Source: an uncultured archaeon (GTDB lineage Archaea; Asgardarchaeota; Thorarchaeia; Thorarchaeales; Thorarchaeaceae). Taken from it: a stretch of 12,537 bases of DNA. Each line of letters opens with the position of its first letter. Position 1 is the first letter of the stretch. Positions 1 to 8,489 of this stretch are shown piece by piece. A model generated the notes under the pieces. The model was not told the DNA's origin and searched no databases. It was given only the letters and a program-made list of their open reading frames with translations. The stretch is taken from contig CAYYQL010000030.1 in the NCBI GenBank assembly GCA_964473825.1, positions 1 through 12,537 of the forward strand, in the 5' to 3' direction. A program made the translations under genes and the position numbers.

Positions 1-72
1 GAGGCCCTAGAGATGGGTTATCGCATGGTAGACACTGCTTTTGCCCCTGATTGGTGCCGAGAGTCTACCTAG
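1..72 (+). CDS. Possible 3' end of a convergent gene entering from the left (EALEMGYRMVDTAFAPDWCREST*)
   Basis: Frame +1 is open from base 1 to TAG at 70-72. This stop overlaps the minus-strand TAG (69-71) of the acyl-CoA dehydrogenase in the palindrome CTAG. Only 23 codons are visible, so it could be chance. Confidence 0.3.
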   Translation, partial: EALEMGYRMVDTAFAPDWCREST

Positions 73-1268
73 AAGTCTGGCGGTTCCATGTTGACCCATT
101 TTGGTATGCTCTCCATAGCTGGGTCATATCCGTCGAGGACATGGCGTGCGAGAATCAGTCGTTGAATCTCGCTCGTGCCTTCGTAGATCTGGTAGAGCTT
201 TGCATCTCTAAAGATCTTCTCGAGAGGGTACTGATCAATATATCCGTATCCTCCGTGGATTTGAAGCGCCTCACTTGCAATCCACATTGCGGCATCCGTA
301 GCAAAGGCCTTTGCCACACTGGCAGGGACTGTTGAATCGCCCGAGGTATCGGCCTCCCACGCAGATCTGAGGTAGAGCAATCGCGACGCCTCTATCTTCA
401 TATACATCTCTGCAAGCTTGAACTGGATTGCCTCAAACTCTCGCAGCTTCTTGGTGAAGGCCTCTCGTTTGTTCACATATTCTCTGGCATATTCCATGGC
501 AGCTCTTGCCAGACCTGTGGCGAAGGCGCCAATTGCAGGTCTCGTCATAGCGAAAGTCGACATAGCAATCAGGAAGCCCATCCCTTCTCCGCCCAAGATG
601 TTCTCTTCAGGGACTTCGACATCTCTCAGAACGACAGACGAAGTTGAAGACGCTCTATGCCCCATCTTTTCAACAGGCCGGCCAGTCCTCAGACCCGAAC
701 TGTCCGCTTCAACAATGAATGCACACAGTGCCTTATGTCTCTGACTGGGATCTAAGCTCGCAAACACCGTAAAGTAGTCAGCATAGGGCGCATTCGTAAT
801 CCAGAACTTGCTTCCATTCAGGACATAGTGGTCACCCTTCTTTTCTGCTCGTGTCTTGATACCTGCGACATCACTCCCCATTCCTGGTTCTGAGCAAGCA
901 AAAGATATGAATCTCAAATCCTCCGTCAAGGGCCGTAGGTACTTCTCCTTCTGTTCCTCATTTCCAGCCACAAGAATCGGCTCTGCACCAAGACTGTTGA
1001 CGTAGATGCTCGTGGTCATCCCTGCACATCCCGCAGCCATCTCCTCCACAACAATGCACTGTTCCAATGCCCCCAGTCCCGGGCCACCATAGTCCTCAGG
1101 TATTCCGAGATTCATGAGTCCCTCATCCCAGCACTTCTGTATGATGGGCCGTGGGAACTCACCAGTCTTGTCGTAGTAATGTGCATAGGGAAGCATATAC
1201 TCTTGGGCAAACCGCCTAGCACGGTTTCGTAGCTCGACCTGTTCATCGGTTAGGGAAAAATCGATCAT
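69..1268 (-). CDS. Acyl-CoA dehydrogenase, short/medium-chain (MCAD/SCAD-type), ~399 aa
   Basis: Motifs FACSEPGMGSDVAG, LNGSKFWITNA, EKMGHRAS, ALQIHGGYGY and RDAKLYQIYEGTSEIQR (catalytic Glu in YEGT). Start placed at ATG 1268 (MIDFSLTDEQ, typical family N-terminus) with GAGGA upstream; the ORF track extends it to 1313. Confidence 0.95.
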   Translation of the reverse strand: MIDFSLTDEQVELRNRARRFAQEYMLPYAHYYDKTGEFPRPIIQKCWDEGLMNLGIPEDYGGPGLGALEQCIVVEEMAAGCAGMTTSIYVNSLGAEPILVAGNEEQKEKYLRPLTEDLRFISFACSEPGMGSDVAGIKTRAEKKGDHYVLNGSKFWITNAPYADYFTVFASLDPSQRHKALCAFIVEADSSGLRTGRPVEKMGHRASSTSSVVLRDVEVPEENILGGEGMGFLIAMSTFAMTRPAIGAFATGLARAAMEYAREYVNKREAFTKKLREFEAIQFKLAEMYMKIEASRLLYLRSAWEADTSGDSTVPASVAKAFATDAAMWIASEALQIHGGYGYIDQYPLEKIFRDAKLYQIYEGTSEIQRLILARHVLDGYDPAMESIPKWVNMEPPDF

Positions 1269-1378
1269 CTTCTCGTCCTCTTGCATAATAGAATGGTATC
1301 CAACTCGTAGCATGCTATATGTCAGTTTTGACTCAGCAGTATACTACGATACTCTACACTCTATCGATATTTGGTCTG

Positions 1379-7081: not shown

Positions 7082-7948
7082 TCACTCAGAGAGATGCTCA
7101 AGTATCCCGTGTGCTGGGACTCGATTCATGTTCAGTCCGACTTCGTCATCACTCATTCCCATGGCCAGTCCAAGAATCTGGGGGTATAGAAGGACAGGCA
7201 GATCATAGGCTTCACCGTACGACTCTCTCAATCCCAGCTGCTGGAGGTCAAGCTGGTTTCCACAGGCCGGACAGACCACCGTGAGAAACTCAGCTCCTGC
7301 TGTCTTCATGGATTTCAGCTTATCTCTTGCAAGTCTTATTGCCAACGGTTCATTCACGGGAAGCACCGTGGCGCCACAACACTGTTTCCAAAGGGGGTAT
7401 TCCGTCACCTTTGCACCTGTCACTCTGACGAGTTCCTTGAGGACTCTAGGCTTGAACTCAGTCACATCCTCTGGTCGTAGAAGATGACAGCCGTAATGAA
7501 TGGCAATCTCCGCCCCATCAAGGGGATTAGTGATCTTGGCTTTGATTGCATCGATTCCAATATCTGTGTAGAGCGCCTCTACAAAGTGACGAACCTTGAT
7601 GTTCCCCTTCAATTCCAGATTATACTGTTTGAGTTCCTCATTGATCTTCTTCATGTCATCTTGACTGTGCTTCAGATGATGAAGGACATCTTTTAGGGAT
7701 CCGAAACATCCGTTGCAGGGGGTGACAATGTCGTGGCCATTCTTCTCGGCAATTGCAAGGGTACGAGCATTAACCACAAGCCAGCCGAAGTAGTCGAATG
7801 CACGAAGGTTTGGGCTACCACAGCAAGCAACGCCCTCCATGTATTCTAGTTCCATATCAAAGGCTTCTGCGACTTTGAGCATAGATGCTTCATAGTTTGG
7901 ATAGTTGGCTGGGACGCTGCAACCCATATAGAGATTATATGTTGGCAC
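7082..7948 (-). CDS. hdrB: Heterodisulfide reductase subunit B (two CCG domains), 288 aa
   Basis: YMGC..CCGS..TPCNGC and HYGCHLLRP..CCGA..VCPAC..QLD. Start set at GTG 7948, 1 nt after the hdrC stop, with RBS GGAGGAG; the ORF-track extension to 8095 overlaps hdrC. Confidence 0.95.
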   Translation of the reverse strand: MPTYNLYMGCSVPANYPNYEASMLKVAEAFDMELEYMEGVACCGSPNLRAFDYFGWLVVNARTLAIAEKNGHDIVTPCNGCFGSLKDVLHHLKHSQDDMKKINEELKQYNLELKGNIKVRHFVEALYTDIGIDAIKAKITNPLDGAEIAIHYGCHLLRPEDVTEFKPRVLKELVRVTGAKVTEYPLWKQCCGATVLPVNEPLAIRLARDKLKSMKTAGAEFLTVVCPACGNQLDLQQLGLRESYGEAYDLPVLLYPQILGLAMGMSDDEVGLNMNRVPAHGILEHLSE

Positions 7949-7949
7949 T

Positions 7950-8489
7950 TTACTCTCCTCCCACAAGCTGGCCGGTCCGTGTCTTCTTGAGAATGCTCTC
8001 CACATCTTCAACAGCCAGCCCCGGCACTTCGGGTTCCAAATCAAGGTCTTCTCGTTCCCAGTCAGCGGTGACAACATAGAGCTGACCCTTGTCAATCAGT
8101 TCCTTTCCTAGAGCCAGCACATTCTCTGGAATCTTTCCTTGTTCTGCAGCTAGATTCTTGCAGTCAAAGAGAATGTCCGTTACCCGGACCTTTTGGGGAC
8201 ATCTCTCTTGGCATTCGAAGCAAGTGAGACACTCCCAGATTTCTCTGGATGAAAGAACCTCTTCACGCATACCAAGCAGTATCATCCTGACTAATTGATG
8301 TGGCTTGAAATCCCATTGATTTGCAATGGGACACGCTGCTGTACAGGTCGAGCATGCAAAACAAGCAGTGAGTTCTTCACCGTTTGGCATGCTCTTCACT
8401 TGATCACGGAAACTGGGATCCAATTTCGACATGTCAATAGGATCGACCAGTGTAACCGGGGGATTCACCTTCTCATCAGTTTCTGCCAT
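7950..8489 (-). CDS. hdrC: Heterodisulfide reductase subunit C, 2x[4Fe-4S], 179 aa
   Basis: CFACSTCTAACP and IWECLTCFECQERCP separated by PHQLVRMILLG; directly upstream of hdrB. Confidence 0.95.
   Translation of the reverse strand: MAETDEKVNPPVTLVDPIDMSKLDPSFRDQVKSMPNGEELTACFACSTCTAACPIANQWDFKPHQLVRMILLGMREEVLSSREIWECLTCFECQERCPQKVRVTDILFDCKNLAAEQGKIPENVLALGKELIDKGQLYVVTADWEREDLDLEPEVPGLAVEDVESILKKTRTGQLVGGE

Follow-up and report, generated by a model that had tools for sequence, protein, structure and literature searches.

The stretch of DNA analysed here, referred to as the window, comprises positions 1–12,537 of a 32,995-base contig (C30) in a 3.27 Mb Thorarchaeota metagenome-assembled genome (MAG) that is 95.7% complete, and carries a heterodisulfide reductase (Hdr) operon whose fifth gene encodes a 756-residue iron–sulfur protein, here termed P756. 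We propose that hdrC, hdrB, a short hdrA, an hdrA-mvhD fusion and the P756 gene probably encode a single soluble, asymmetric Hdr-type flavin/iron–sulfur complex, in which P756 would serve as a fifth subunit at the MvhD arm and replace MvhG and MvhA. The core enzyme is of a known kind, namely an asymmetric tandem-HdrA Hdr, and it is the fifth subunit at the MvhD port that is undescribed; no description of a P756-like protein was found in the literature.

All genes of the window lie on the minus strand (−), to which the window coordinates below refer. The operon opens with hdrC (7950–8489; 179 aa), encoding a two-[4Fe-4S] subunit (Fer4_8, E 5.5e-12; TIGR03290, 97.7 bits against a cut-off of 160), and continues with hdrB (7082–7948; GTG start, 288 aa), in which the CCG domain is matched in two stretches (E 2.2e-30; TIGR03288, 272.7 bits against a cut-off of 345). 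The cluster motifs of HdrABC enzymes, two CCG domains in HdrB and two [4Fe-4S] motifs in HdrC, are thus both present, and the CCG domains, with their non-cubane clusters, are the site of disulfide chemistry. Then follow the short hdrA (5813–7063; 416 aa), with an FAD/TrxR domain, and the hdrA-mvhD fusion (3646–5808; GTG start, 720 aa), which encodes the long HdrA and joins an FAD/TrxR domain to a [2Fe-2S] MvhD domain (3649–4095, residues 572–720; FlpD match at residues 580–702, or 612–734 in a longer reading frame, E 1.9e-31). The P756 gene (1379–3649) comes fifth. The genes are separated by 1 nt (hdrC/hdrB), 18 nt (hdrB/short hdrA) and 4 nt (short hdrA/hdrA-mvhD), and the fusion overlaps the P756 gene in an ATGA. 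A promoter-like element resembling a B recognition element and TATA box (BRE/TATA; 8555–8567, AAGCTTTTAATAT) lies 66 nt upstream of the hdrC ATG, and the motif AAACTTTTAATAT is kept at equal distance upstream of hdrC in ~30 relatives. A scan for sigma-70 promoters and terminators gave results at chance level, its bacterial models not being applicable to archaea. Pfam and NCBIfam scans detected no hydrogenase, Fdh, Flx or Etf genes in the window, and the operon encodes no catalytic input module together with its MvhD, as would be expected of an Mvh-, Fdh- or Flx-coupled Hdr. A sequence-only reading of this DNA had described the same gene order, tight packing, domain content and lack of an input module, all of which hold on direct reading of the sequence and in both profile collections.

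The two HdrA subunits were aligned and numbered against the solved methanogen HdrA 9sfi_A (numbering as in PMC12054007). The long HdrA aligns with residues 2–232 and 314–652, followed by a full MvhD, and skips residues 232–314; it consequently has the N-terminal cluster domain, the TrxR domain, the C-terminal 2x[4Fe-4S] domain and MvhD, and lacks the inserted ferredoxin domain. The short HdrA aligns with residues 146–561 only, lacks both the N-terminal cluster domain and the ferredoxin domain at the C-terminus, and retains the inserted ferredoxin domain in reduced form. In the PDB, the long subunit finds its best match at E 1e-80 and the short one at 1e-70. Cys197, which provides the fourth ligand for the N-terminal cluster of the partner HdrA (PMC9012536), has an equivalent in the FPTDDCFYC motif of the short HdrA; at this position the long HdrA reads LPVVAPTGKSG, without a Cys, and its own N-terminal domain carries CTCG...C...C. 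Column counts show these key residues to be invariant or nearly so among unique Thorarchaeota orthologues (n=56 for the short, n=58 for the long HdrA). Adjacent genes therefore supply the N-terminal domain and the Cys197 equivalent separately, and, as judged from these alignments, the short and long HdrA are complementary halves that accompany a single HdrBC. The same complementarity led Chadwick et al. to infer obligate HdrA heterodimers in anaerobic methanotrophic archaea (ANME) (PMC9012536).

Within the classification of PMC12054007, the domain content makes the short HdrA HdrA6-like and the long HdrA a variant of type Ia. HdrA2 (NF040770) is the best NCBIfam match of the long HdrA, at 440 bits far under the equivalog cut-off of 1100; the short HdrA scores 282 bits against the same cut-off. 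A type Ia protein of the HdrA2 kind has all HdrA1 domains plus MvhD and no partner HdrA, whereas here the inserted ferredoxin domain is missing and a partner hdrA precedes the gene by 4 nt. A bifurcating HdrA has been proposed to be marked by Lys409 and Glu356 at the flavin (PMC12054007). These positions are occupied by Asp324 and Ser277 in the long HdrA and by Lys263 and Ala211 in the short HdrA, so that neither subunit has the complete pair; across the 56–58 orthologues these flavin-site residues, too, show little or no variation.

Comparison with characterized systems places the enzyme near known Hdr complexes. The MvhAGD-HdrABC complexes of Methanothermococcus and Methanothermobacter (PDB 5ODC, 9SFI) are alike in HdrB with two CCG domains, in HdrC, in the TrxR/FAD and cluster domains of HdrA, in the C-terminal ferredoxin domain and in MvhD. 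They differ in that the window pairs two unlike HdrA subunits instead of a homodimer, fuses MvhD to HdrA, has an incomplete K409/E356 pair and, in place of MvhA and MvhG, encodes a non-catalytic 756-aa Fe-S protein with winged helix-turn-helix (wHTH) modules; the substrate also differs, as the genome has no detectable mcrA or comA. The tandem HdrA proteins of ANME (HdrA5/6 and HdrA12/13 in PMC9012536; A6/A12 and type Ia in PMC12054007) show the same complementarity as the present pair. Their clusters belong to methane- or alkane-metabolising Halobacterota and occur with FdhB/molybdopterin or with no partner, and no P756-like gene is described for them; in the window, by contrast, the long copy is also without the inserted ferredoxin domain and is fused to MvhD. 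Methanosarcina acetivorans HdrA2B2C2 likewise combines an HdrA-MvhD fusion with HdrBC and has no hydrogenase or Fdh module in its operon (PMC5296606, cited in PMC12054007). That enzyme has all HdrA1 domains and no partner HdrA, uses F420H2 and CoM-S-S-CoB, and is not known to have a fifth subunit. The statement in the sequence-only reading that MvhD normally links HdrA to MvhAG, Fdh or Flx has to be softened accordingly, since HdrA2B2C2 works without such a module (PMC5296606, cited in PMC12054007).

P756 is encoded by one gene copy in the genome and comprises, in order, a conserved N-terminal KRRR motif, a variable helical arm, two wHTH modules, a helical linker and a split 2x[4Fe-4S] ferredoxin. 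Module 1 (2690–2986; ~residues 222–320) shows the helix/strand pattern of a winged helix in the predicted structure, with predicted local distance difference test (pLDDT) values of 80–93, and module 2 (2150–2482; ~residues 390–500) combines an NVYGEKL motif with a winged helix. The two modules form an internal repeat (BLASTP E 7e-8, 22% identity over 98 aa). In the ferredoxin domain (1394–1774; residues 626–752), two CxxCxxCxxxCP motifs lie 69 residues apart and enclose an insert (1526–1672; residues 660–708) with the motif LP.N..FYRT.R.LA, which is the predicted MvhD-docking surface. All eight ferredoxin Cys are invariant across two clades of P756 that share ~25% identity, and the motif of the insert is kept in both. 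Sites for a flavin, a nucleotide or a catalytic metal are absent from P756. The orthologue of one Thorarchaeota lineage is longer, at 972–980 aa (L071, 9245–12187; L072, 9164–12082; also L127, L129 and L131–L133), and matches P756 in its N-terminal ~120 and C-terminal ~340 residues, the module 1 region being swapped for a longer unrelated stretch; an ACAD (acyl-CoA dehydrogenase) gene still follows it.

Judged by homology, P756 is assembled from parts that are linked to Hdr or MvhD elsewhere. The ferredoxin has homologues in other Asgard families, either as free-standing proteins of ~160 aa encoded directly after an hdrA-mvhD that itself follows a short hdrA, or fused to MvhD in proteins of 312 and 318 aa. 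A P756 profile matches 60 representative proteins over ~residues 330–506, 22 of which carry FlpD in the same chain. Module 2 shares homology with the extension that 'long MvhD' proteins carry at their C-terminus, and with free-standing proteins of 113–125 aa, whose genes overlap mvhD or precede a short-type hdrA. Both the homology to an extension of FlpD proteins and the hdrA/mvhD neighbourhoods (L141–L144, L151 and L153) identify the module as MvhD-associated. Bathyarchaeia and Thermoplasmatota have multi-hdrA clusters in which genes for long MvhD proteins (FlpD plus an NVYGE winged helix, 254–262 aa) stand between those for HdrA (L151, 7001–7774; L153, 1660–2448 and 5483–6247), and the source annotation of these long MvhD proteins reads 'hydrogenase delta subunit/predicted transcriptional regulator'.

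The only solved wHTH docking element beside MvhD that we found belongs to BamF, the long MvhD adaptor of the class II benzoyl-CoA reductase BamBCDEFGHI, in which cryo-EM shows the winged helix docked on BamI of the electron-input module (bioRxiv 10.64898/2026.04.10.717634). A protein–protein contact of this type is proposed, by analogy, for the P756 modules. The wHTH of BamF is part of the MvhD chain, whereas P756, a distinct protein, has two winged-helix copies in addition to a ferredoxin; the BamF wHTH is a possible homologue of the NVYGE module.

A paralogous operon on contig C56 of the same genome (L061, 70–7464 and 7744–10497) has the order hdrC-hdrB-hdrA(433)-hdrA(591)-mvhD-mvhG-mvhA, with an 80-aa open reading frame (ORF) without a Pfam match between mvhD and mvhG. 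Ahead of it lies a gene for an HdrA-like protein of 917 aa that includes an NAD(P)H module of the GltD/NfnB type. Its 433-aa HdrA is of the short type and its 591-aa HdrA carries the N- and C-terminal domains, so that both operons share one plan; in C56 a separate MvhD is followed by a [NiFe] hydrogenase, whereas in the window a fused MvhD is followed by P756. Because the paralogous operon has the same order but ends in mvhD-mvhG-mvhA, P756 occupies the hydrogenase position.

A structural model of the complex agrees with this placement. The model paired full-length P756 with the MvhD domain (residues 572–720) on the basis of custom alignments, with two [4Fe-4S] clusters and one [2Fe-2S] cluster riding along, and scored 0.61 over three runs, against 0.00 for the best of three controls. 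Of 80 solved complexes, 58 attained a score of 0.61, as did 2 of 110 mismatched pairs; this calibration is only rough given the custom alignments and the riding Fe-S ligands. The runs agreed in at least 65% of contacts, with a partner pLDDT of at least 77. All confident contacts on P756 fall within residues 660–708, and the MvhD side of the interface comprises residues 620–628, 653–670 and 706–715. The modelling thus supports docking of the ferredoxin insert of P756 on the MvhD domain.

Conservation ties the fifth gene to the operon. Full-length P756 is present in 36 of 36 genomes of the same family (47–94% identity) and was not found in 24 genomes of other families of the phylum. The order p131-PCNA-PriS-GINS-(cc96)-hdrC-hdrB-hdrA-hdrA/mvhD-P756-ACAD, which begins with a replication block upstream of the operon, is identical in 20 of 20 twenty-kilobase loci from at least 12 genera, and recurs in species representatives among GTDB genomes, with one genus (represented by G017) lacking the ACAD. 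P756 is kept with hdr in ~55 Thorarchaeota species and directly follows hdrA-mvhD in all fetched Thorarchaeota loci. A profile search of 1.84 billion representative proteins recovered a distant clade of 734–747 aa, 24–26% identical to P756 and collinear with it over the whole span between the N-terminal KR motif and the last Cys motif; a Helarchaeota MAG accounts for one of its loci. In this clade the order is short hdrA, hdrA-mvhD, P756-like gene, hdrC, hdrB, with no ACAD nearby. Linkage of the fifth gene to hdr therefore holds in two lineages that differ in gene order, and that of the ACAD in only one. The five-subunit Hdr variant put forward in the sequence-only reading is therefore upheld by a five-gene block that is conserved in every Thorarchaeota locus examined and by a fifth gene that stays with hdr in the second clade as well. 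Its placement of P756 in the input or adaptor position likewise gains from the ATGA coupling to hdrA-mvhD, the hdr linkage in two clades, the replacement of mvhG-mvhA relative to C56 and the modelled MvhD contact.

The fused MvhD could instead be fed by a hydrogenase or Fdh encoded elsewhere, leaving P756 as a mere assembly or stabilising factor. The genome offers candidates: it has many Hdr paralogues and five [NiFe] large subunits, with C56 and C19 each carrying a hydrogenase locus, as well as an fdhA whose 723 bits exceed the TIGR01591 cut-off and which on C14 directly follows an mvhD ORF (44628–47079) and forms an Fdh input module with its own MvhD adaptor. Methanogen Hdr complexes are also described as swapping Mvh and Fdh on one core (cited in PMC9012536). 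At each of the three input loci (hydrogenase on C56 and C19, Fdh on C14), however, an mvhD stands directly beside the catalytic genes, and because these modules have their own MvhD, the fused MvhD is unlikely to borrow them. All eight cluster-binding Cys of P756 are also invariant between clades at ~25% identity, and the predicted footprint of P756 lies on the MvhD domain itself. We regard remote input as improbable.

The winged helices of P756 raise another alternative, in which the protein is a redox-sensing transcription factor, combining an Fe-S sensor with two DNA-binding domains, and not an enzyme subunit. Its wHTH modules give matches to DNA-binding families below the Pfam gathering thresholds (MarR_2, 26.1 against 27; TrmB, 22.2 against 25.6; HTH_9, 19.1 against 23.4), homologues of the module match ArsR/HTH_5, and a PDB profile search matches HlyU/ArsR-type regulators at E ~1e-6; the N-terminal KRRR motif is basic, and the putative recognition helix of module 2 fairly so. 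Membership in MarR, TrmB or ArsR is nevertheless not reached at the gathering thresholds, and the genomic contexts argue for an enzyme: the module is fused to MvhD in 22 of the 60 representative proteins and lies between hdrA genes in Bathyarchaeia and Thermoplasmatota, while the distant-clade gene sits amid hdr genes. The ATGA coupling would imply about equal expression with a metabolic enzyme subunit, the ferredoxin part has the canonical two-cluster electron-transfer fold with an insert predicted to bind MvhD, and a protein of 756 aa with a variable helical arm of ~200 residues is unlike known wHTH regulators. A regulatory role is accordingly considered very unlikely.

As a fifth subunit of an Hdr complex, P756 can be fitted into a three-armed scheme. 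The short and long HdrA would pair as a heterodimer in which only the short subunit holds a working bifurcating FAD, and the long HdrA would serve as wiring and scaffold. One arm would run via HdrC to the disulfide site of HdrB, a second by way of the shared N-terminal cluster and the inserted domain to low-potential ferredoxin, and a third through the C-terminal ferredoxin domain and MvhD. P756 would sit on this third arm, where its split-ferredoxin insert would dock on MvhD and its two [4Fe-4S] clusters would lengthen the wire. Its two MvhD-type winged helices and helical arm would then act as a protein-docking scaffold and not as DNA binders, either clamping the HdrA pair or recruiting a separately encoded redox partner. 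As P756 itself offers no site for a flavin, a nucleotide or a catalytic metal, a different protein or carrier must act as the mid-potential partner. The disulfide would not be CoM-S-S-CoB, because the genome lacks mcrA and comA: neither these genes (searched with PF02249 and PF02679) nor dsrC and aprA scored above cut-off in this 95.7%-complete genome, where not found does not equal absent.

Several observations weigh against this interpretation. HdrA, HdrB and HdrC all fall under the NCBIfam equivalog cut-offs for CoB-CoM heterodisulfide reductase. The K409/E356 pair is incomplete in both HdrA subunits, and the enzyme may be a simple ferredoxin:disulfide reductase and not a bifurcating one; true bifurcation is uncertain because the Glu is missing at the flavin. 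The score of the P756/MvhD complex is a model confidence and not a measurement, and the alignments behind it are shallow (27 and 19 rows). The docking role suggested for the wHTH modules is drawn by analogy with BamF, and the modules themselves give the sub-threshold matches to MarR, TrmB and ArsR DNA-binding families described above. The AlphaFold2 monomer of P756 is mediocre (pLDDT 67.6): its helical and wHTH parts are confident, module 2 and the ferredoxin domain are poor, the latter below 50, and no detailed claims are drawn from it. A Foldseek search of this model against the PDB returned nothing at E ≤ 1e-3. The best hit, the multi-winged-helix human protein RPC62 (E 2e-3, above the threshold), was considered and is read as a generic wHTH resemblance only. 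Sequence searches of the PDB with P756 and the module profile yielded nothing beyond generic ferredoxins, short MvhD chains and ArsR/HlyU regulators.

The ACAD gene (69–1271; 400 aa) follows the P756 gene in the same direction after a spacer of 107 nt (1272–1378), in line with the ~110 nt noted in the sequence-only reading. An in-frame ATG upstream, at 1313, is not shared by relatives. The product carries the three Pfam domains of the family (N-terminal, middle and C-terminal; E 3e-34, 2e-24 and 2e-49), which establish it as an ACAD, and its catalytic Glu lies in a YEGT motif (IYEGTSEIQ) conserved in orthologues. No NCBIfam equivalog cut-off that would define the substrate class was reached (AcrC, 355.7 against 640; cyclohexane-1-carbonyl-CoA dehydrogenase, 340.6 against 650), and by similarity the protein appears closest to the acryloyl- and butyryl-CoA dehydrogenase types. 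Like Bcd/EtfAB and CarCDE, the genome combines an ACAD of this type with an electron-transfer flavoprotein (ETF), whose EtfA subunit (399 aa) resembles CarE in its N-terminal 2x[4Fe-4S] ferredoxin domain; here, however, the ACAD lies beside an Hdr operon, and etfAB on another contig by unrelated genes. This sole etfAB of the genome (C60; L062, 3297–5288) is flanked by genes for a NosD-like beta-helix protein and phosphoglucomutase, and not by an ACAD. The remark in the sequence-only reading that no etfAB is visible stands for the window and for the relatives, in which aldo/keto reductase, cupin, SnoaL, HD, DUF438-hemerythrin-PAS or lone mvhD genes were seen after the ACAD and etf was not; for the genome itself it is uninformative, as the contig ends 68 nt past the ACAD stop codon and the window cannot inform on an etfAB further downstream. 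A search of the whole genome yielded hydrogenase (C56, C19), fdhA (C14) and etfAB (C60), and neither mcrA nor an aprA above cut-off.

The adjacency suggests that P756 might wire the ACAD into Hdr and couple acyl-CoA/enoyl-CoA chemistry to the disulfide and ferredoxin without ETF. A co-directional ACAD follows P756 in all adequately long Thorarchaeota loci bar one genus (~55 species), and the spacer has no oligo-T run, so that read-through could occur. The ACAD is also unusually conserved, its orthologues scoring 680–900 bits across genera while P756 is only 47–60% identical, and it ends in a private C-terminal tail (72–134; Y.PAM...P.W....PPDF) that is kept in ~70 orthologues, is missing from four paralogues of the genome and could be a docking peptide; elsewhere in the genome only one loosely similar PPEF tail was found, on C3. 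Finally, the genome has five ACAD paralogues and a single etfAB, which adjoins none of them. A 1161-aa P756-ACAD fusion ORF that appeared in one record (L122, ~2215–2315) was rejected as an artefact of a run of N.

Other observations speak against such a link. Collinearity within the family spans the whole region, starting at p131/PCNA and extending past the ACAD into cupin, DUF438-hemerythrin-PAS and lone mvhD genes, and the adjacency is therefore not independent evidence. No ACAD lies near P756 in the distant clade. Within Thorarchaeota, a 95%-complete genome (G017; locus L073, 8842–14584) keeps the five genes, the DUF438-hemerythrin-PAS gene and the lone mvhD, and lacks the ACAD at the locus; at only 46% identity, its best ACAD match is on a par with the C20 paralogue. 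That paralogue, the closest in the genome of the window, adjoins a thiolase and a DUF35-type gene. The spacer contains a conserved TATA-like element (1315–1329, AAAACTGACATATAG; GACTTATAC in most relatives) 44 nt upstream of the ACAD ATG, and in most Thorarchaeota loci such an element stands ~45–55 nt upstream of the ACAD start and is followed by a GAGGGAG ribosome-binding site; it is a probable internal promoter of the ACAD. Energetics point the same way. The acyl-CoA/enoyl-CoA couple lies near −10 mV and the MvhD port at mid-potential, ~−300 to −400 mV; with P756 predicted at that port, textbook potentials suggest that the couple could not donate electrons there and that accepting them would waste energy. 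We also know of no iron–sulfur partner that accepts electrons directly from an ACAD.

We therefore consider a wiring of the ACAD into Hdr through P756 unlikely. The idea in the sequence-only reading that the complex exchanges electrons with acyl-CoA oxidation is not sustained, given a collinear adjacency confined to Thorarchaeota and absent from the distant clade and G017, a TATA element and ribosome-binding site of its own, and a donor near −10 mV that is unsuitable. As for whether the ACAD stays next to the block, it does so across Thorarchaeota, but G017 has no orthologous ACAD and the distant clade none at all. The ACAD is best described as a conserved neighbour, for which the case for a joint function with Hdr is weak and such a function not demonstrated. 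A still more specific arrangement, in which the winged helices of P756 capture the C-terminal tail of the ACAD and form an ETF-independent Hdr-ACAD supercomplex coupling enoyl-/acyl-CoA redox to ferredoxin and the disulfide, is improbable. If true, it would represent a new class of flavin-based electron bifurcation or confurcation and would bear on electron disposal from fatty-acid or amino-acid breakdown in Asgard archaea. The ACAD link should not enter metabolic models on adjacency alone.

Asgard archaea have many Hdr gene sets, no methanogenesis and no known heterodisulfide, and the electron donors and acceptors of Hdr matter for metabolic models of the closest archaeal relatives of eukaryotes, including hydrogen and syntrophy scenarios. 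The present locus provides a defined and conserved five-subunit unit in Thorarchaeota, with an asymmetric design and a new fifth subunit. The parts of P756, namely the MvhD-linked winged helix and the split ferredoxin, recur in hdr clusters of Asgard archaea, Bathyarchaeia and Thermoplasmatota and therefore point to a general and so far undescribed means by which partners connect to the MvhD port of Hdr-type enzymes.

Upstream of the operon, two further features were recorded. An unlisted 63-aa ORF (8618–8809) encodes two predicted membrane helices and a C-terminus reading ...YKKGLPGQ, and most Thorarchaeota relatives show the stretch that codes for this C-terminus upstream of their hdr promoter; as the ORF is located before the hdr BRE/TATA, it lies outside the hdr transcript. 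The replication block (8833–12371) encodes a 131-aa protein (p131), PCNA, a 468-aa PriS, GINS51 and a 96-aa coiled-coil protein (cc96). Every Thorarchaeota locus examined keeps this block collinear with the hdr operon, a family-wide linkage of core-replication and energy-metabolism operons.

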